DNA of 59,749 nucleotides from UHGV virus genome UHGV-0185078. The stretch is one strand, 5' to 3'. Within the stretch, counting starts at the first letter, position 1. Every line of letters begins with the position of its first letter. Below the pieces are notes generated by a model, which worked only from the letters and a program-made list of their open reading frames with translations, ran no database searches and had not been told where the DNA came from. Below are positions 35,559 through 41,221 of the stretch, in pieces. The DNA is from a virus. The position numbers and the translations under genes were made by a program.

Positions 35559-36152
35559 TTATTTTTTATCTAAATGACGTGAAGTCATGATCGGATGCGT
35601 AGCAGCTTCTTCCTCTGCTGTAACCACATTGGCAGATGTACCAGTGGACCCGAAACCATTAGCACCGCGCTCAGTAATTTTGAGCTCGTCTACTTCTACC
35701 AGTTGCACGCAAGGGACCTTAATAAGCATAGCTTGCGCAATACGATCACCATGACTAACGGTAAAACTACCATCATGATCAATAGTGAGCTTAACCTTAA
35801 CTTCCCCAGTGTAATCGCTGTCAATAACACCCACGCAGTTTGCCAGACGCACGTCATTTTTGAATCCGTGCCCACTACGGGAATAGACCATAAGCGCATA
35901 CCCTTTAGGGATATCAAACGCTAACCCTGTGCGGAATATGTGCTCGTAAGAGAAAATGATTTGTTCACAACCGTCTTCACTTTTGAGATCCGCGTGCAGG
36001 TCAAAGCAAGCTGCCCCGGCAGTAGCGAACGCTGGCAAGATGGCGCTGTCTGTTAAGCGTTTCACACCGACCGGAATTGTGCTTAATGATGCAGCAAGTT
36101 TTTCAACATCAATTGCAAAAGAATTTTTTGTGATATTTAATACGTCAGTCAT
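35559..36152 (-). CDS. dut: dUTP pyrophosphatase (trimeric dUTPase)
   Basis: AGAACFDLHA, YSRSG and GVIDSDYTGEV motifs. Confidence 0.85.
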   Translation of the reverse strand: MTDVLNITKNSFAIDVEKLAASLSTIPVGVKRLTDSAILPAFATAGAACFDLHADLKSEDGCEQIIFSYEHIFRTGLAFDIPKGYALMVYSRSGHGFKNDVRLANCVGVIDSDYTGEVKVKLTIDHDGSFTVSHGDRIAQAMLIKVPCVQLVEVDELKITERGANGFGSTGTSANVVTAEEEAATHPIMTSRHLDKK

Positions 36153-36164
36153 AATTTCACCTTA

Positions 36165-36629
36165 TTAAGAGTATGTACCTGTTTGAACAATGTGATTAAT
36201 AGCATGTGCTCTGAAGATTTCCCTAAAATCTTCAAGTTCTATTGTAGCACGAATTGGTTCCTTTTTAATATAATGATTGAACTCATTAATATCAAAGACG
36301 GAAGGGTTCATACATATAACAACTTTCCAACCTGCTCTAGGAATCTTATACATTAAGACTGGGATTTTATTACATTCCTGTGCAGACTTAACAGTTTGCT
36401 TCCACCATGTGTTAACAGCAAGAGTTGCATGGTTTTTGATCTCTACACAATATTGGCAAGTATTATCAATATCCGCACCACCTACAGCCGATTGATTTTG
36501 TCGCCTTTGTGCAATAGGTTTAGGTGGTAACGGTTTACCAATAAGCTTATGCACTTCCGCATAGATATCGTTGAAAAAATCGCAAGCTTCCCTTTCAGCT
36601 CTCTGACCTTTTTGCCGTATGTTGACCAT
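36165..36629 (-). CDS. PD-(D/E)XK-type nuclease-like protein
   Basis: GGADID...CVEIK motif; start placed at ATG 36629 (AAGGA RBS); 5' end overlaps HNH gene by 35 nt. Confidence 0.45.
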   Translation of the reverse strand: MVNIRQKGQRAEREACDFFNDIYAEVHKLIGKPLPPKPIAQRRQNQSAVGGADIDNTCQYCVEIKNHATLAVNTWWKQTVKSAQECNKIPVLMYKIPRAGWKVVICMNPSVFDINEFNHYIKKEPIRATIELEDFREIFRAHAINHIVQTGTYS

Positions 36630-37107
36630 GATTTGCAAATTCCTTATGTAATTCCAATCTTTTAGTTCTAACCCAAGCTTTAGCAGCTTGTAAACCTTCA
36701 GGTGTAAGTTCAAAATATTTTGATACCAAAACACCTTTTACATGTAAGTTTGCATAATAGACTTGAATGCCATTATGTTTTGTAATAGTTACGCACTTAA
36801 CACCAGTCTTTGAGTCTTTACGAATAACCATATTATAATTGTTCTGTGAACGATCAGCCAGTCTAAGATTTTCTATTCTGTTATCATCTCGAACTCCGTT
36901 AATATGATCAATTATCTTGTCTTCAGGAATATCACCATTGAAGTATTGCCATATTAACCTGTGAGCGAAATAAAATCTCTTATCAATTTTACCTTGAATG
37001 TAACCATCCTGACGTTTTGTACCAAATGGTCTTTTATTATAACCGTTTTTATTTCTTTGAAATAATTTGCCATCTATATAAATAAAGCGATCGTTTACAT
37101 TGATCAT
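36595..37107 (-). CDS. HNH homing endonuclease
   Basis: HRLIWQYFNGDIPEDKIIDHINGVRDDNRIENLRL HNH motif; start taken at ATG 37107. Confidence 0.75.
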   Translation of the reverse strand: MINVNDRFIYIDGKLFQRNKNGYNKRPFGTKRQDGYIQGKIDKRFYFAHRLIWQYFNGDIPEDKIIDHINGVRDDNRIENLRLADRSQNNYNMVIRKDSKTGVKCVTITKHNGIQVYYANLHVKGVLVSKYFELTPEGLQAAKAWVRTKRLELHKEFANHGQHTAKRSES

Positions 37108-37153
37108 GTTTACCTCCTTTATATGTATTTTAATATGAAGTAAAATCAATCTC

Positions 37154-37185
37154 AATAAAAAAGCGCAACGTTTTCACGCTGCGCT
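37154..37185 (-). terminator. rho-independent terminator closing the structured non-coding island
   Basis: Minus strand agcgcagcg-tgaaaa-cgttgcgct hairpin followed by tttttt. Confidence 0.6.
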
Positions 37186-37491
37186 TAGTTTAAATAAGGT
37201 ACTTGACTATTCAGCTTCCCTTATTTCCGGTAAATTGTACAGCCTCGCCAAAGGCTGGTGACGGTTTGGTACATCTGGCGCCGTCGCGTTAAACATCGTT
37301 TACATCGTTCAGTAAGTTGCGGGTTTACCCTGTCCGCTCCAGGAAGCCCAGCGAAAGTAGTTGCTGTAAGGAGGTACAGCTACCGCTTTCAAGGGCTTGA
37401 GTTAAGCATCGTTCACTAAGTTAATGTTGTTAAATTGTTAAACCTCGTTAACTGTGGTTATCTTAAAGGATGCAGTCTTGAATGGCAAGCT
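37186..37491 (-). other. GC-rich structured non-coding island (candidate ncRNA or cis element) between the HNH genes
   Basis: No ORF on either strand; multiple short perfect stems (cagcct-cgccaa-aggctg, gctgta-aggagg-tacagc, gggt-tt-accc); closed by terminator 37154-37185 on the minus strand. Confidence 0.4.
37294..37423. repeat. direct repeats catcgttca(g/c)taagtt within the structured island
   Basis: Copies at 37303-37318 and 37408-37423 (15/16 identical) plus partial copy catcgtt at 37294-37300. Confidence 0.5.
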
Positions 37492-37806
37492 TCAATTTTG
37501 CGCGGTTCCCTTTGCCGCTTTTGGTGCTAAAGTACCATCATTTAACATCAACTCAAAACCTGTTACTTGATCGGTTGGAACAATAGGGTAATTCATAATA
37601 GCCATGTGGATACGATGCCCTCCCTCACACTCGTCGATGTATTCATTACCCCAATAGTATAAATGCCCATCTCTTCGAATATCCATTGCCGTCGGGAAAT
37701 CTACAAGAATTCTTTTAATTTCTTTTCGTCCTTCTTTATGCAGATTAGTTTCAATACGGATAAGCTCCGCATAAATTGCTTCACAGATAGTATTTACAAT
37801 ACTCAT
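37492..37806 (-). CDS. hypothetical protein
   Basis: 104 aa ORF followed by about 300 bp non-coding structured DNA. Confidence 0.4.
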   Translation of the reverse strand: MSIVNTICEAIYAELIRIETNLHKEGRKEIKRILVDFPTAMDIRRDGHLYYWGNEYIDECEGGHRIHMAIMNYPIVPTDQVTGFELMLNDGTLAPKAAKGTAQN

Positions 37807-37831
37807 TTTTCGTTCCTCACAGAATGTACAA

Positions 37832-38386
37832 TTAAGATTCTTTTCCGTGTCTAAGACTATACCCTAATTCATACTCTTTGGCAAATCTTACTTCAATAGC
37901 TTCATCTTTTGTAGGATAACTACCAAGATGCGTCCATTTTCCGTCAATACTTATAGCAGCTTGCCAAAGTCCTGTAGCAGGATTAAATTTTACGCCCGTA
38001 CATCCGGACGTGTTGTTAATGTTCATGCGTCTATTCTTTTGGTTATCTTGTCGTGAACTATTTTTTAAGTTCCATGGACGGTTATTCAACCCATTCCCGT
38101 CATCATGATCAATTTCTTCAGGTTCTTCATTATAGAGCATCTTCCAGATTATACGATGTGCCAGATAATGAAGACCGTCTAGACCAACAAGAATATAAAC
38201 GTTTCGGTCTTTAACAACAGCGCGACCAGCTTCTTTTCCTGCGAACTGAGAGTTGAATTTGGAACAAGCTCTTTGTGTTTTAAAGAACTTTAAAGGCGCT
38301 TTCTTCCATCTTAAAATGCCAGTCTCTTCATTATACTCAAAACGATCATGCAAATAGTCAAATGAAGGTAAAGGTCTAAATCTCAT
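37832..38386 (-). CDS. HNH homing endonuclease with AP2-like C-terminal domain
   Basis: HRIIWKMLYNEEPEEIDHDDGNGLNNRPWNLK HNH motif; C-terminal GVKFNPATGLWQAAISIDGKWTHLGSYPTKDEA AP2-like; start taken at ATG 38386. Confidence 0.75.
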   Translation of the reverse strand: MRFRPLPSFDYLHDRFEYNEETGILRWKKAPLKFFKTQRACSKFNSQFAGKEAGRAVVKDRNVYILVGLDGLHYLAHRIIWKMLYNEEPEEIDHDDGNGLNNRPWNLKNSSRQDNQKNRRMNINNTSGCTGVKFNPATGLWQAAISIDGKWTHLGSYPTKDEAIEVRFAKEYELGYSLRHGKES

Positions 38387-38627
38387 ATTATTACCTATAA
38401 CCAATATGTAAACCAGAAATAACCAGCTACGAAAATAGCACCCGCAAATAATTTTAAAAGCTCGAACATTGTCCCCTCCGTTAACTTTATGCTGTAAGTA
38501 TAGCAGGACTTGCGATGTATGCAACAACTTTAGACTTGAAATGCATCTATAAAATAGCACGATTTGCCTTTACCTCTGATCCGTCTAGCTGTACTATTAA
38601 CCCATAAACAGAGCGGAGGATTACAAA

Positions 38628-38852
38628 ATGGTCATGCTGAATAAAGTATATAGCACAATGGGCGCGGATTATAAAGTTGTACGTCACCCGCGTACTGGTA
38701 AATTTGAAGCATACATCCGTCCAATGGGTGAAGGTTGGATGTATTACGGTACTTATGACGACGCTGAGAAAGCTTATAAAGAAGCGGAAAGTACAGCGGA
38801 AGCATCCGAAATTATGGCAAGGTACGACGTCGATGATTACTACCTTAACTAA
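38628..38852 (+). CDS. small hypothetical protein encoded antisense to the replication module
   Basis: 74 aa; GGAGGA RBS 7 nt upstream of ATG; followed by a perfect hairpin terminator. Confidence 0.5.
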   Translation: MVMLNKVYSTMGADYKVVRHPRTGKFEAYIRPMGEGWMYYGTYDDAEKAYKEAESTAEASEIMARYDVDDYYLN

Positions 38853-38857
38853 CAATA

Positions 38858-38883
38858 AAGGGCCTTTCGGCCCTTTATTTATT
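38858..38883. terminator. bidirectional terminator between small + gene and primase gene
   Basis: aaagggcc-tttc-ggcccttt perfect hairpin flanked by A and T runs. Confidence 0.7.
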
Positions 38884-41221
38884 CCTCTTCACCTAAGTTT
38901 GCCATAATTCCTTCAACATCTTGCGTAATGCGCCAAGCTGCCCCAGTAAATCCCAGTTTAATAGTCTCCTCCCGTGTTACCGGAACAAGGGCCCCCATAG
39001 CAACCATTTCCTTGATCGTAGACTCGATCGCTGCGGACAATCCGTGGTGATAGTTTTTAAACGCGGACTTACTTGCAAGACGCGTAGTAATATCCCCCCG
39101 CGTGATAATACCTTCTTTACGTAGATCTACACGTTTAACTTTCACCCAATCTTTAGTTAGATAATTCACACAAACCTGGCACATAGTACGGATACGAGCT
39201 TCGTCATTAGTACCAATACCCCCGCTATGCCATTCCTTCATAATGATATCCTGTCCATGGCGCACAAAGTCCAAGGCCCATTGAACATGATAGGTCTGCA
39301 CAACTGGATTGATCCAATTTTCTCCCACAGCTAACAGGGCGGATAGACGTAATACCTTCAGGTGTGCACGGTTCCATGGCTGACGGATTGCTTCATCTTT
39401 GGTTGCGTTAATATTACGGTCGCATTCATCGTTAAACTGATCACATAATGCTTCAGCATCCGGACTAAACTGCACTTCAATACTTTGATGCTTTGCCATT
39501 GCGACTAAGGTGTGGTTAACAAGATGGCACACCATATCCCGCAAATGCTGATCCATTGTAGTCTGCTGGTTCTTGTTTAAAGGCGGTCGATCCCCTTCAT
39601 AGCGGACAACATGGAAACGGGATAAGAAACCATCCTCCATCATTTCACGGGTTAATGCTTCAAAGAACGTATCCGGTGTCGTTTCGCCCATGATGCTATA
39701 TGCCACACCTTGTTGAGCTTCCGTATTATTAGCCTTATCAGAATAAGACATACCACCAACAATAGACATCTGACCGGACTTTTGATAAACATCGGTAAGG
39801 TCATTCTTGAAGCTTTGCATTGGTGAACCTGCTGGTGCCGTAGCCATTGCTTTAATAATCTTACCAAACTCACCGTTCAAGTTGATAAAAGATTGTTTGT
39901 CCGCAAAAGATTTACGCAGTGCGGAGCCGGAAGCGCATCGGTCAAAAGATACAAAGCTATGAATCTGCGGGAACGGTTCCTGAAGCTGGCTAACTATATT
40001 AGATAGCCCACTGTTCAACGTTTCTTTACCAACACCAGAACGAGCAATAAGGACGAAATATCCATTAAGACCAGATTGCGGAATCTGCCAGACCTTCCCG
40101 CATACCCCAGCCATAAAGCCTAGCGCTGTCACAATAGAAATTTCTTTCACTGGTCGGACGGATGCTTTGTAGATGTACTTCGCAAGCTCCCCAGCAAGCC
40201 CCGGCGGCCAGTCAATAGCGGTTGCATCAATAGATGTACTTTCTGCAACTACGGTCTGCCCCTGAGTTGTTTCAACAGTTACGGGCATTTCCGCTACCTG
40301 CTGCATTGCACTGTGTGCAGCTTGCATACGGGCAGCATAATCCCGCGCCAGCGCAGCTACGTTTTCCTGGGCAATGCGCTCACGCTCCATGCGTCCGCGA
40401 CACATACGCAAGCAACGGTCAATATGAACATTGTTCTTATTAGCCTTCTCACGTTTGCCCAGTGCACTGTAACGGAACAGACGACGGCATTGCTCATTAC
40501 TTTCCGTGTAAAATGCATACATAGAAATAAGGGCAAGGTCTGCTTCAGACTGGGAAGGGAAACCCATTTCAACCCATTCACCATTGAATAACCGTGAATA
40601 CTTATCGCCGTTATCTGCTTCAAGTGCGCGCTGATGAATAGTTGCATCATCTTCTACCGGATCTTTTTCTACCAGTTCAATTTCATATGTCTTGCGCTGA
40701 AGATCAATTTCATTCACAAGCATAGTAAGGTAATGATCACGTTCGGCAACTGATTTATTGTAGACAGGATTGCCCGTGCAGATAATAAAACGCTCCTGAC
40801 TATAAACCTCGACACCATCACGTCGACGACCTTTACCGATGTTACCTCTTAACCACAGGTGAACACCTAAGCCTGAGCGACTTACTTCGGTGTAAGTATC
40901 GAACGCAGTCATGATCTGTTCGAAGCGGCGCAACTGTTCCGGCGTCGTGTGCTTCTTGGGATCCGGTTCATTGGTTGCGTTCTTCACATCCAGGTCGATG
41001 CAGGTGAACGGGTCTTGTGCAGTAAGCACGAATCCAATATAAGGTTTATTGAAATGAGCGGCGCAACCTTTGGCAGCTTCAAACGTCATAAGCATATCCG
41101 GATCGGTAACGTCCGCCGCCATCAAACGTCCAATATCGCTATCCCATACCAACGGCTTTTTATCCGCATCGGCGACCGCCCATTGTGGGAAAGCTTTAAT
41201 TTCAGCGGGAAACAGTTCCAT
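38879..41221 (-). CDS. DNA primase (AEP/prim-pol-like N-terminus) fused to P-loop helicase domain
   Basis: 780 aa; N-terminal GLGVHLWLRG-type primase signature; Walker A-like ARSGVGKET in the second half. Confidence 0.6.
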   Translation of the reverse strand: MELFPAEIKAFPQWAVADADKKPLVWDSDIGRLMAADVTDPDMLMTFEAAKGCAAHFNKPYIGFVLTAQDPFTCIDLDVKNATNEPDPKKHTTPEQLRRFEQIMTAFDTYTEVSRSGLGVHLWLRGNIGKGRRRDGVEVYSQERFIICTGNPVYNKSVAERDHYLTMLVNEIDLQRKTYEIELVEKDPVEDDATIHQRALEADNGDKYSRLFNGEWVEMGFPSQSEADLALISMYAFYTESNEQCRRLFRYSALGKREKANKNNVHIDRCLRMCRGRMERERIAQENVAALARDYAARMQAAHSAMQQVAEMPVTVETTQGQTVVAESTSIDATAIDWPPGLAGELAKYIYKASVRPVKEISIVTALGFMAGVCGKVWQIPQSGLNGYFVLIARSGVGKETLNSGLSNIVSQLQEPFPQIHSFVSFDRCASGSALRKSFADKQSFINLNGEFGKIIKAMATAPAGSPMQSFKNDLTDVYQKSGQMSIVGGMSYSDKANNTEAQQGVAYSIMGETTPDTFFEALTREMMEDGFLSRFHVVRYEGDRPPLNKNQQTTMDQHLRDMVCHLVNHTLVAMAKHQSIEVQFSPDAEALCDQFNDECDRNINATKDEAIRQPWNRAHLKVLRLSALLAVGENWINPVVQTYHVQWALDFVRHGQDIIMKEWHSGGIGTNDEARIRTMCQVCVNYLTKDWVKVKRVDLRKEGIITRGDITTRLASKSAFKNYHHGLSAAIESTIKEMVAMGALVPVTREETIKLGFTGAAWRITQDVEGIMANLGEEE

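Follow-up and report, generated by a model that had tools for sequence, protein, structure and literature searches.

Two HNH endonuclease genes lie between primase and dUTPase

The DNA analyzed here, referred to as the window, is the 59,749-nucleotide virus genome UHGV-0185078, a Seuratvirus (Queuovirinae) and thus a Seurat-like E. coli phage; the sequence of its locus of interest is identical to ENA contig ERZ1034925 NODE_71. The 59.7-kb window contains only two open reading frames of the HNH_3 type. These genes, HNH1 and HNH2, occupy variable slots in the DNA-replication and DNA-metabolism region, between primase and dUTPase. The original prediction had placed two HNH genes here, on either side of gene 37492-37806 and a structured non-coding island. 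The coordinates agree, the two genes do enclose that gene together with a non-coding stretch at 37156-37491, and the HNH_3 and phrog_99 scores of both reading frames are far above chance. Scans of the whole window for tRNAs and Rfam families gave no match. The features of the locus are as follows:

36165..36629, minus strand: PD-(D/E)XK nuclease gene (‘allele A’), 154 aa; Pfam PDDEXK_15, motif D...ExK
36167..37234, no strand assigned: mosaic block, 1.07 kb, AT-rich, with terminator, promoter, HNH1 and nuclease allele A
36595..36629, minus strand: HNH1/nuclease overlap, 35 nt, 3’ end of HNH1 and 5’ end of the nuclease gene in different frames
36595..37107, minus strand: HNH1, 170 aa, ATG at 37107, ribosome binding site (RBS) AAAGGAGG; predicted free-standing HNH (H-N-N) endonuclease with an AP2-like C-terminal domain
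37127..37186, minus strand: intrinsic terminator (37186-37161) followed by a sigma-70-like promoter, TTGAGA-17-TAAAAT (37155-37127), from a pattern scan
37235..37491, minus strand: ultra-conserved non-coding island between HNH1 and HNH2, outside both mobile cassettes
37492..37806, minus strand: 104-aa gene, phrog_25787, function unassigned, conserved in all relatives
37807..38408, no strand assigned: HNH2 cassette, 602 bp, replacing a 219-bp segment with a 65-aa gene (Seurat gp58 type)
37832..38386, minus strand: HNH2, 184 aa; predicted free-standing HNH (H-N-N) endonuclease with an AP2-like tail
38395..38469, minus strand: 24-aa hydrophobic ORF, MFELLKLFAGAIFVAGYFWFTYWL, RBS GGAGG, adjoining the HNH2 slot on its upstream side

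HNH1 and HNH2 combine an H-N-N site with an AP2-like tail

HNH1 matches the Pfam HNH_3 profile (PF13392; gathering score 24.8 bits) with 74.9 bits (E 3.7e-21) and HNH2 matches it with 37.1 bits (E 2.4e-9), while against phrog_99 (‘HNH endonuclease’) their E values are 2e-45 and 8e-56, respectively. The HNH1 protein is 100% identical to SA126VB_63 (‘homing endonuclease’) and to its Dru_SM1 counterpart (‘HNH endonuclease’), and is already annotated in GenBank as a homing endonuclease. Residues H68, N76, N80, N89 and N92 of HNH1 are invariant in its family alignment, as are H94, N102, N106, N115 and N118 of HNH2 in its own; the DH/N/N/N catalytic columns are invariant in both, and none of these residues is changed in the window copies. 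Canonical H-N-H motifs had been predicted for the two proteins. Each does contain an HNH domain, but the motif reads DH...N...N...N and its second histidine is not conserved; because the last metal ligand is an asparagine rather than a histidine, the site is the H-N-N variant, as in I-HmuI.

Structure models were obtained with a pLDDT of 86 overall for HNH1 (<50 at residues 161-170) and 85 for HNH2. I-HmuI (PDB 1U3E) is the best PDB match to each model, ranked first with probabilities of 0.93 and 1.00, but with E values of 1e-2 and 1e-3; its superposition gives TM values of 0.38-0.42 and a large global rmsd, as the domain arrangement differs. The modeled HNH2 tail consists of three strands (residues 132-135, 140-147 and 150-157) and a helix (160-174), and residues 106-157 of HNH1 form a β-β-β-α tail of the same topology. 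The Foldseek matches to the HNH2 model include the AP2 domains 7WQ5, 7ET4 and 1GCC further down the ranking, behind a Toxoplasma gondii mitochondrial ribosome chain (9hqv_Yn) in second place, and the HNH2 tail superimposes on 1GCC with an rmsd of 1.6 Å over 50 columns (probability 0.99).

A search of HNH1 and HNH2 themselves with Pfam AP2 (PF00847) gave no match even at E values up to 10, and for lack of a direct match the AP2 assignment was made through full-length homologues and the structure models. The profile is matched by 24 of 39 aligned HNH1 homologues (best E 8.7e-11) and by 8 of 17 HNH2 relatives when their aligned tails are searched (best E 4.9e-9). The case is weaker for HNH1, because the best fold matches to its tail are T. 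gondii mitochondrial ribosome chains and integrase arm-binding domains. The AP2-like tail originally proposed for HNH2 is thus borne out by fold and homologues, but its restriction to HNH2 is not, as the HNH1 tail is AP2-like too.

The overlap with the nuclease gene leaves its start codon fixed

The gene downstream of HNH1 encodes a protein that scores 51.7 bits (E 1.2e-13) against PF24608 PDDEXK_15, for which the cut-off is 27 bits, and its motif GGADID...CVEIKNH is kept in alleles A and B across a 12-allele alignment. The proteins encoded by the two alleles are 62% identical, and allele B is present in ~30 Seuratviruses that lack HNH1. A PDB sequence search with the nuclease returned nothing meaningful and no solved relative. 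The label ‘RusA-like resolvase’ that it carries in GenBank and PHROG is a name only, and its function is predicted.

Since the HNH1 stop codon occupies 36595-36597 and the nuclease gene spans 36165-36629, the overlap, predicted at about 35 nt, is exactly 35 nt. It had been taken to make the nuclease start ambiguous, which it does not: the ATG at 36629 is fixed by a conserved N-terminus, M(A)VNIRxKGxRxERE, found in both alleles and in 12 phages. This ATG sits within the HNH1 codons AAT-CAT-GGT, which encode the family-conserved N-H-G, and the C-terminal consensus of the HNH family, HKEFANHG, ends exactly there. The last nine codons of HNH1 (QHTAKRSES) are a low-confidence read-through tail beyond the conserved C-terminus. 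The idea that the overlap encodes a functional fusion or coupling domain was rejected, as the conserved ...EFANHG stops at the nuclease ATG and is followed only by this tail.

Both genes are polymorphic among relatives and decay in some of them

The presence/absence polymorphism on which a claim of mobility turns is clear for both genes. Of ~32 distinct Seuratvirus records, only four (SA126VB, Dru_SM1, VogelGryff and OddieOddie) carry HNH1. Full-length HNH2 is found elsewhere solely in Salmonella phage STP-SP5 (84% nucleotide and 90% amino acid identity) and a truncated form in SA126VB; the other relatives have unrelated small genes in the HNH2 slot. In SA80RD the HNH1 slot is occupied by an unrelated HNH gene (SA80RD_62) that does not overlap the nuclease gene, and a third HNH lies between nuclease and dUTPase in KS_A3, KS_S4, SHIN8 and Skure; a single nuclease gene is adjoined by these three distinct HNH lineages. 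Decayed copies of HNH1 are found in metagenome contigs, one with a frameshift (L027) and one with a 155-nt 5’ deletion (L022), and the HNH genes must be dispensable, because frameshifted, deleted and chimeric copies sit in otherwise intact genomes. The nuclease gene, the 104-aa gene and the 24-aa ORF all keep their full length and their collinearity with HNH-less relatives. As these neighbors are intact, HNH1 and HNH2 are free-standing genes, and an intron- or intein-encoded HNH was ruled out.

These data bear on whether the HNH proteins are domesticated nucleases that exclude competitors, degrade host DNA or, in the case of HNH1, work with the PD-(D/E)XK nuclease during replication or recombination. 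The position of HNH1 as first gene of the nuclease-dUTPase operon, its strong RBS and its overlap with the nuclease gene would suit such a role, and marker exclusion by homing endonucleases can favor the carrier phage (PMC2988022). However, both genes are missing from most close relatives, the broken copies include a frameshift, a deletion and a chimera, and the overlap encodes a disordered nine-residue tail (pLDDT <50) that has no equivalent in the non-overlapping HNH of SA80RD. We consider domestication very unlikely.

HNH1 is part of a mosaic block

The 1.07-kb block that contains HNH1 takes the place of a 623-bp block in HNH-less relatives, with BLAST breakpoints at the nuclease stop codon and at the end of the conserved island. 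Its GC content of 0.32-0.37 is below that of the genome (0.443) and of allele B (0.449). The window, SA126VB and Dru_SM1 share 99-100% identity over the HNH1/nuclease block but only 85-88% over the adjacent dUTPase gene, which makes a recent arrival of HNH1 a reasonable reading. SA126VB_63, bas25_0057 of VogelGryff (‘putative homing endonuclease’) and NGRRMQZB_63 of Dru_SM1 are the same gene at the same locus as HNH1; the GenBank copies have 95-100% protein identity to it and the same 35-nt nuclease overlap.

Allele A always occurs with an upstream HNH gene in the five database phages identified by tblastn. The exact allele A protein is present in 23 metagenome contigs, and HNH1, intact or decayed, lies upstream of it in 10 of the 10 places listed. 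An HNH-free allele A, i.e. an empty site, was not found in phage records, IMG/VR, JGI metagenomes or the listed places of the exact protein, and therefore the HNH1 insertion cannot be viewed as clean presence/absence in an identical background; the nearest HNH-free case is a 77%-identical nuclease in a distant contig (L016) with a different gene layout. The comparison with related phages that had been proposed for defining insertion boundaries placed the limits of block and cassette, but gave no clean empty site for HNH1.

The window, Seurat, GottfriedDienst, KS_A3, SHIN8 and STP-SP5 were compared side by side in the promoter region. A homologous TTGAGAT...TAAAAT after a terminator precedes allele B in HNH-less phages, which excludes that HNH1 brought its own promoter; judged from this alignment, the terminator and promoter are native to the phage and not HNH-borne. 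HNH1 is perfectly linked with nuclease allele A and the A-type terminator/promoter, a pattern that fits co-conversion and also a single ancestral acquisition. HNH1 is not a simple insertion, since the nuclease allele and the terminator/promoter that accompany it are both divergent.

HNH2 occupies a slot used by many small genes

The limits of the HNH2 cassette were located by an anchored slot comparison of 11 relatives. On the left it begins inside the final 4 codons of the 24-aa ORF, and on the right it is bounded by the ATG of the 104-aa gene. The 24-aa ORF, unannotated in the records examined, is present in 11 of 11 relatives, including STP-SP5, with conservative substitutions, and all slot occupants begin at one common offset past it. 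SA126VB_65 is an in-frame chimera of HNH2 and the 65-aa gene, joined at TGAAGAACCT, that lacks the catalytic core. HNH2 is linked to a YWL/YWV ending of the 24-aa ORF, and this linkage, too, fits co-conversion and also a single ancestral acquisition. The divergence of HNH2 from its STP-SP5 copy (84% nucleotide identity) is close to that of the flanks (~82%) and is therefore compatible with old vertical residence, not recent invasion. The recent mobile-element invasion first proposed for the pair thus stands as to mobility, and ‘recent’ is reasonable for HNH1, but neither gene is a clean insertion.

At least six alternative non-HNH genes occupy the HNH2 slot with shared boundaries, and because these exchange there, the variability of this slot needs no endonuclease. 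Both HNH genes might accordingly be passive passengers that do not drive their own spread, possibly inactive cargo of mosaic slots whose contents are exchanged through homologous recombination between conserved flanking sequences. The limits of the HNH1 block, which are gene borders and the end of the ultra-conserved island (a would-be recombination anchor), and the mosaicism of the neighboring dUTPase and primase genes point in the same direction. Against this, three independent HNH lineages surround one nuclease gene, two of them in exactly the same slot, a clustering not easily accounted for unless endonucleases drive the targeting; moreover, the window copies keep all catalytic residues, and their HNH plus AP2 architecture is that of a known homing endonuclease family (PMC10448857). 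We regard the passenger explanation as improbable.

An ultra-conserved non-coding island separates the two genes

The island between HNH1 and the 104-aa gene is 98-99.6% identical over 33 records. It contains iteron-like repeats and a 20-bp hairpin (37345-37397) with the loop ACCUCCUUA, in which six compensatory pair changes are seen relative to STP-SP5, a covariation that rests on few lineages because island homologues are few and near-identical: the island is missing from four more distant loci (L016-L019), and an IMG/VR pattern scan recovered only 3 near-identical loci. A 53-aa plus-strand ORF that some records annotate in the island was rejected as coding, as its differences from STP-SP5 are spread 9/10/12 over the codon positions; in addition, gap lengths in this region are not divisible by three, and locus L014 has kept no ORF. 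The hairpin loop equals the anti-Shine-Dalgarno end of 16S rRNA and is complementary to the HNH1 RBS, AAGGAGGUA, at 9 of 9 positions, and a promoter-like site (37488-37460) together with the terminator at 37186-37161 would bound a minus-strand RNA of ~290 nt. That such an RNA regulates translation or serves as a decoy for Shine-Dalgarno sequences, with HNH1 as a possible target, is a speculative reading of these sequence features that we think improbable.

Discussion

We conclude that HNH1 and HNH2 are probably free-standing homing endonuclease genes of the phage HNH_3 plus AP2-like family, residing in two recombination-prone slots. Their closest structural reference is I-HmuI, which together with I-HmuII comes from the Bacillus phages SPO1 and SP82. 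The similarity includes the H-N-N variant site (DH...N...N), the rank of 1U3E as best PDB match by sequence and fold, and the same order of an N-terminal β-hairpin region, a catalytic core and a C-terminal DNA-binding module, but it is weak (sequence E 0.035 to 1, TM ~0.4). I-HmuI is encoded in a group I intron of a DNA polymerase gene and nicks one strand, whereas HNH1 and HNH2 are free-standing and intergenic, and their AP2-like C-terminal module presumably differs from that of I-HmuI.

The HNH-AP2 enzymes of phages, cyanobacteria and protists share an N-terminal HNH, a C-terminal AP2 domain and a size of ~160-190 aa with HNH1 and HNH2, which unlike them fall below Pfam AP2 detection. HNH plus AP2 is a recognised phage homing endonuclease family (PMC10448857, citing Magnani 2004), and its genes, like HNH1 and HNH2, lie scattered in phage genomes at genetic-exchange boundaries. 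Homologues of HNH1 and HNH2 occur in ~3000 phage records. The ‘IPA-HNH’ homing endonuclease genes of Vibrio phage ICP1 are different, as HNH1 and HNH2 match the canonical HNH_3 profile. Among the phages that carry HNH1, SA126VB, VogelGryff and Dru_SM1 differ from the window in that none has an intact HNH2, SA126VB having the truncated chimera.

Co-conversion and marker exclusion are established for the free-standing endonucleases of phage T4 (PMC2988022, PMC2790892). T4 MobE (HNH) and SegF/SegG (GIY-YIG) are likewise intergenic among DNA-metabolism genes and absent from close relatives, and the linkage of HNH1 to a divergent nuclease allele fits the co-inheritance of flanks seen in T4 intronless homing. 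T4 belongs to another phage family, however, and the Seg catalytic families differ; its cleavage sites and crosses are experimental, whereas HNH1 and HNH2 are known here from sequence and models, from which we infer their catalytic activity, target sites and homing.

In the homing model, when a relative without the gene infects the same cell, the AP2-like tail would bind near the empty slot, where the β-β-α-metal H-N-N site would nick or cut the DNA, and recombinational repair would then copy the endonuclease gene and flanking donor sequence into the recipient. In the case of HNH1, the whole 1.07-kb block, including the 62%-identical nuclease allele, would transfer as one unit, and carriers are probably immune to cutting owing to their divergent sequence in nuclease and promoter. 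HNH1 would be the first cistron behind the operon promoter, with the nuclease translated from its own RBS (AAGGA) inside the HNH1 3’ end and the 35-nt overlap a mere nine-codon read-through of HNH1. HNH2 would have displaced the 65-aa gene in the small-gene exchange slot after the 24-aa ORF. In a more speculative reading, the nuclease gene may itself be a preferred target of three HNH lineages, with HNH1 spreading by swapping in a resistant xenologous allele.

The HNH pair is real but ordinary and implies no new biology; its value lies mainly in comparative genomics and annotation. The results settle the start of the nuclease gene, allow names to be given to HNH2 and to its homologue in STP-SP5, which is annotated ‘hypothetical’, identify SA126VB_65 as a dead chimera, and make the primase-dUTPase region unsuitable as a marker in phylogeny. 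In compact form, the locus illustrates the life cycle of a homing endonuclease, with invasion, co-transfer of divergent flanks and replacement by another endonuclease, as well as frameshift, deletion and loss via microhomology recombination. Seuratvirus DNA carries a 7-deazaguanine (dpreQ0) modification (PMC8594841), which we counted against the homing reading; the locus could therefore offer a way of asking if HNH-AP2 enzymes cleave DNA modified in this manner.

Gene order of the region

The genome is that of a Seuratvirus (Queuovirinae), and the region lies in its DNA-metabolism module. By megablast it matches 37 phage records, mostly of Seuratviruses of Escherichia (Seurat, CAjan, VogelGryff and SA126VB among them), and the ENA metagenome contig ERZ1034925 NODE_71 (59,804 bp) is 100% identical over window 36100-38900. 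All genes lie on the minus strand with one exception, a 74-aa ORF.

Features of the region (window coordinates)
35559-36152, minus: dUTPase (gene call)
36165-36629, minus: PD-(D/E)XK nuclease (gene call)
36595-37107, minus: HNH1 (gene call)
37155-37127, minus: promoter-like site, after the terminator
37186-37161, minus: terminator, upstream of the promoter-like site
up to 37491: non-coding island between HNH1 and the 104-aa gene
37492-37806, minus: 104-aa gene
37832-38386, minus: HNH2 (gene call)
38395-38469, minus: 24-aa hydrophobic ORF
38628-38852, plus: 74-aa ORF
between the 74-aa ORF and primase: bidirectional terminator
38879-41221, minus: primase

Both HNH proteins carry an I-HmuI-like motif and have AP2-like tails

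The two HNH ORFs of the original prediction are confirmed at their coordinates: both exceed the Pfam HNH_3 gathering score of 24.8 (HNH1, 74.9 bits; HNH2, 37.1 bits), both match phrog_99, and they are the sole two HNH_3-type genes within the window. Homologues of each protein occur in about 3000 phage records. The motif is not the canonical H-N-H that had been claimed; it reads DH...N...N...N, an I-HmuI-like H-N-N variant, and no second histidine is conserved. An AP2-like tail, proposed for the second protein, is present in HNH2 and is not exclusive to it, as the HNH1 tail is AP2-like too. The Pfam AP2 profile gave no match to HNH1 or HNH2 themselves; among their relatives the aligned tail region matches it in 8 of 17 for HNH2 and in 24 of 39 for HNH1. 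In the predicted HNH2 model (pLDDT 85) the C-terminus consists of three strands and a helix, and its PDB matches are I-HmuI first, followed by the AP2 domains 7WQ5, 7ET4 and 1GCC, the last superposing at 1.6 Å over 50 columns. The HNH1 model (pLDDT 86) has the same tail topology. I-HmuI is again the top match, and further beta-beta-beta-alpha modules follow in integrase arm-binding domains and in T. gondii mitochondrial ribosome chains, one of which ranks high for HNH2 as well.

The nuclease start is fixed within the overlap

HNH1 and the nuclease gene, predicted to overlap by about 35 nt, share exactly 35 nt by coordinates and sequence. The nuclease start, previously considered ambiguous, is set at ATG 36629 by an N-terminus (MVNIRQKGQRAERE) conserved in both versions of the gene, alleles A and B, across 12 phages. 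The ATG lies inside the HNH1 codons AAT-CAT-GGT, and because the conserved C-terminus of the HNH family (…EFANHG) stops exactly there, the overlap represents a 9-codon read-through tail, which is predicted to be disordered. The nuclease matches Pfam PDDEXK_15 and carries a D...ExK motif. In Pharokka-annotated relatives it is named 'RusA-like Holliday junction resolvase' (phrog_244), which is probably a misnomer taken over from the PHROG name.

HNH1 lies in a mosaic block with nuclease allele A

Only four phages in the database have HNH1 at this position: SA126VB (99.5% nucleotide identity), Dru_SM1 (99.1%), VogelGryff (94.5%) and OddieOddie (88.7%). Judged by its breakpoints, it is not a simple insertion. 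In comparisons with the HNH-less phages Seurat, GottfriedDienst, KS_A3, SHIN8 and Skure, homology is lost at 36166/36167, the nuclease stop, and regained at 37235. The nuclease within this 1.07-kb block is allele A, which shares 62% protein identity with the allele B carried by about 30 Seuratviruses. With a GC content of 32-37%, the block falls below both the genome (44%) and allele B (45%). Allele-B phages hold diverged but recognisable homologues of the terminator and promoter, indicating that the promoter is part of the phage operon; HNH1 is placed between this promoter and the nuclease. The block is 99-100% identical among the window, SA126VB and Dru_SM1, whereas their adjoining dUTPase genes are only 85-88% identical, and therefore the block appears to have moved recently between backgrounds. 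The suggestion of recent mobile-element invasion is reasonable for HNH1 in view of this near-identity.

An HNH gene lies upstream of allele A in all five database phages that have this allele, and at all 10 places listed from the 23 public contigs encoding the exact allele-A protein; no clean empty allele-A site was found in these phages or places, nor in IMG/VR or the JGI metagenomes. In SA80RD, allele A is joined in the identical slot by an unrelated HNH (42% amino acid identity to HNH1), with swap breakpoints at 36602/3 and 37098/9, and a third HNH lies on the opposite side of nuclease B in KS_A3, KS_S4, SHIN8 and Skure. Two contig copies of HNH1 are decayed, one (L027) by a frameshift within the HNH motif and the other (L022) by loss of 155 nt, including the start codon and the first 49 codons.

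HNH2 occupies an exchangeable slot

The variable segment of the HNH2 slot spans 37807-38408. Seurat, GottfriedDienst, OddieOddie, SHIN8 and Skure instead hold ~219 bp with a gene for a 65-aa protein, and still other occupants are found in VogelGryff, Dru_SM1, KS_A3, SA80RD and the contig L024. Every slot gene starts at a constant offset, 8 nt past the stop codon of the 24-aa ORF, whose last four codons vary with the cassette (YWL/YWV with HNH2, otherwise YIL). The only other full-length HNH2 genes are in Salmonella phage STP-SP5 (84% nucleotide and 90% amino acid identity; labelled 'hypothetical') and one matching Logan contig; the exact window protein is found in only four contigs, listed as a single place whose genes are ordered as in the window. 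SA126VB_65 (L003 6010-6357, cf. window 38109-38386; labelled 'hypothetical protein') is an in-frame chimera of HNH2 codons 1-89 and the last 26 codons of the 65-aa gene (Seurat gp58 type). Its crossover lies in a 10-nt microhomology (TGAAGAACCT) directly before the catalytic DH, so that the nuclease core and AP2 tail are missing; by its predicted product it is a dead homing endonuclease remnant.

An 85-nt patch (38077-38161) coding for the catalytic core (AHRIIWKMLYNEEPEEIDHDDGNGLNN) is 95% identical to a paralogous HNH of SA126VB that has ligase and RNase H as its neighbouring genes and whose overall protein identity to HNH2 is only 42%. Across paralogues elsewhere (L003 1501-1585; comparison locus L007 2614-2690) the patch is 85-95% identical and overall protein identity is 36-42%; the core peptide is also common to several otherwise distant metagenomic relatives. 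The pattern points to gene conversion between paralogous endonucleases, or to shuffling of their domains.

Neighbouring small ORFs and the non-coding island

The 24-aa ORF (MFELLKLFAGAIFVAGYFWFTYWL) has a GGAGG ribosome-binding site, is kept in 11 of 11 relatives compared, even in the diverged STP-SP5 (MFEFVKIFASVIFIALYFWLMYWV), and is not annotated in the GenBank records examined; it probably encodes a genuine small membrane protein. The 74-aa ORF occurs in all relatives and belongs to phrog_22269, where its function is unassigned. Its match to Pfam AP2 is sub-threshold (E 0.013; 16 bits versus 33), and it may be a stand-alone AP2-like DNA-binding protein.

Felixounavirus Salmonella phage SPJ41 (L012 2317-3164, cf. 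window 38409-38647) contains a stretch of ~0.9 kb that is 93-95% identical to Seuratvirus DNA, a match shared by SWJM-02. The segment includes the 24-aa ORF and the divergent promoter region, along with parts of two genes: the N-terminal portion of a KS_A3-type slot gene and the opening codons of the 74-aa gene. It is split by a 127-aa ORF and adjoins an HNH gene placed between two DNA polymerase ORFs. It looks like a cross-family transfer, perhaps captured in the course of endonuclease-induced repair.

The island poses a question of its own, apart from the HNH genes. Across 33 Seuratvirus records its conserved part (37235-37491) shows 98-99.6% identity, exceeding the conservation of neighbouring coding genes, and an Rfam search of it gave no match. 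A plus-strand ORF annotated there in some GenBank records is not conserved and was rejected. A 20-bp hairpin (37345-37397, minus) shows six compensatory pair changes relative to STP-SP5, and G-U pairs in its stem favour a minus-strand RNA. The invariant loop, ACCUCCUUA, is the 3' end of 16S rRNA, the anti-Shine-Dalgarno sequence. The island also contains iteron-like repeats (GT[GAT]AACGA[TG]G[CT]TTAAC), with a promoter-like site upstream (37488-37460) and the terminator downstream (37186-37161). It is a candidate phage small RNA or origin element.

Homing endonuclease genes or passive cargo

The main rival explanation is that the HNH genes are passive cargo in recombination-prone slots; it is less likely but may apply, especially to HNH2, as its slot is exchanged among many non-HNH genes. 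The domains, sporadic distribution, sharing of slots by HNH lineages, composition, flank linkage and decay together form the signature that is classic for homing endonuclease genes of the free-standing type, whereas activity, target site and actual homing are inferred. Such elements are well known, and HNH1 already has an annotation in GenBank, where entries 100% identical to its protein bear the names 'homing endonuclease' or 'HNH endonuclease'. The same signature is seen in the Seg and Mob enzymes of T4 (PMC2988022, PMC2790892), and the pattern agrees with the HNH-AP2 family of phages (PMC10448857). Regions like this one are already called 'infested with homing endonucleases' by those who assembled the BASEL phage collection (PMC8594841).
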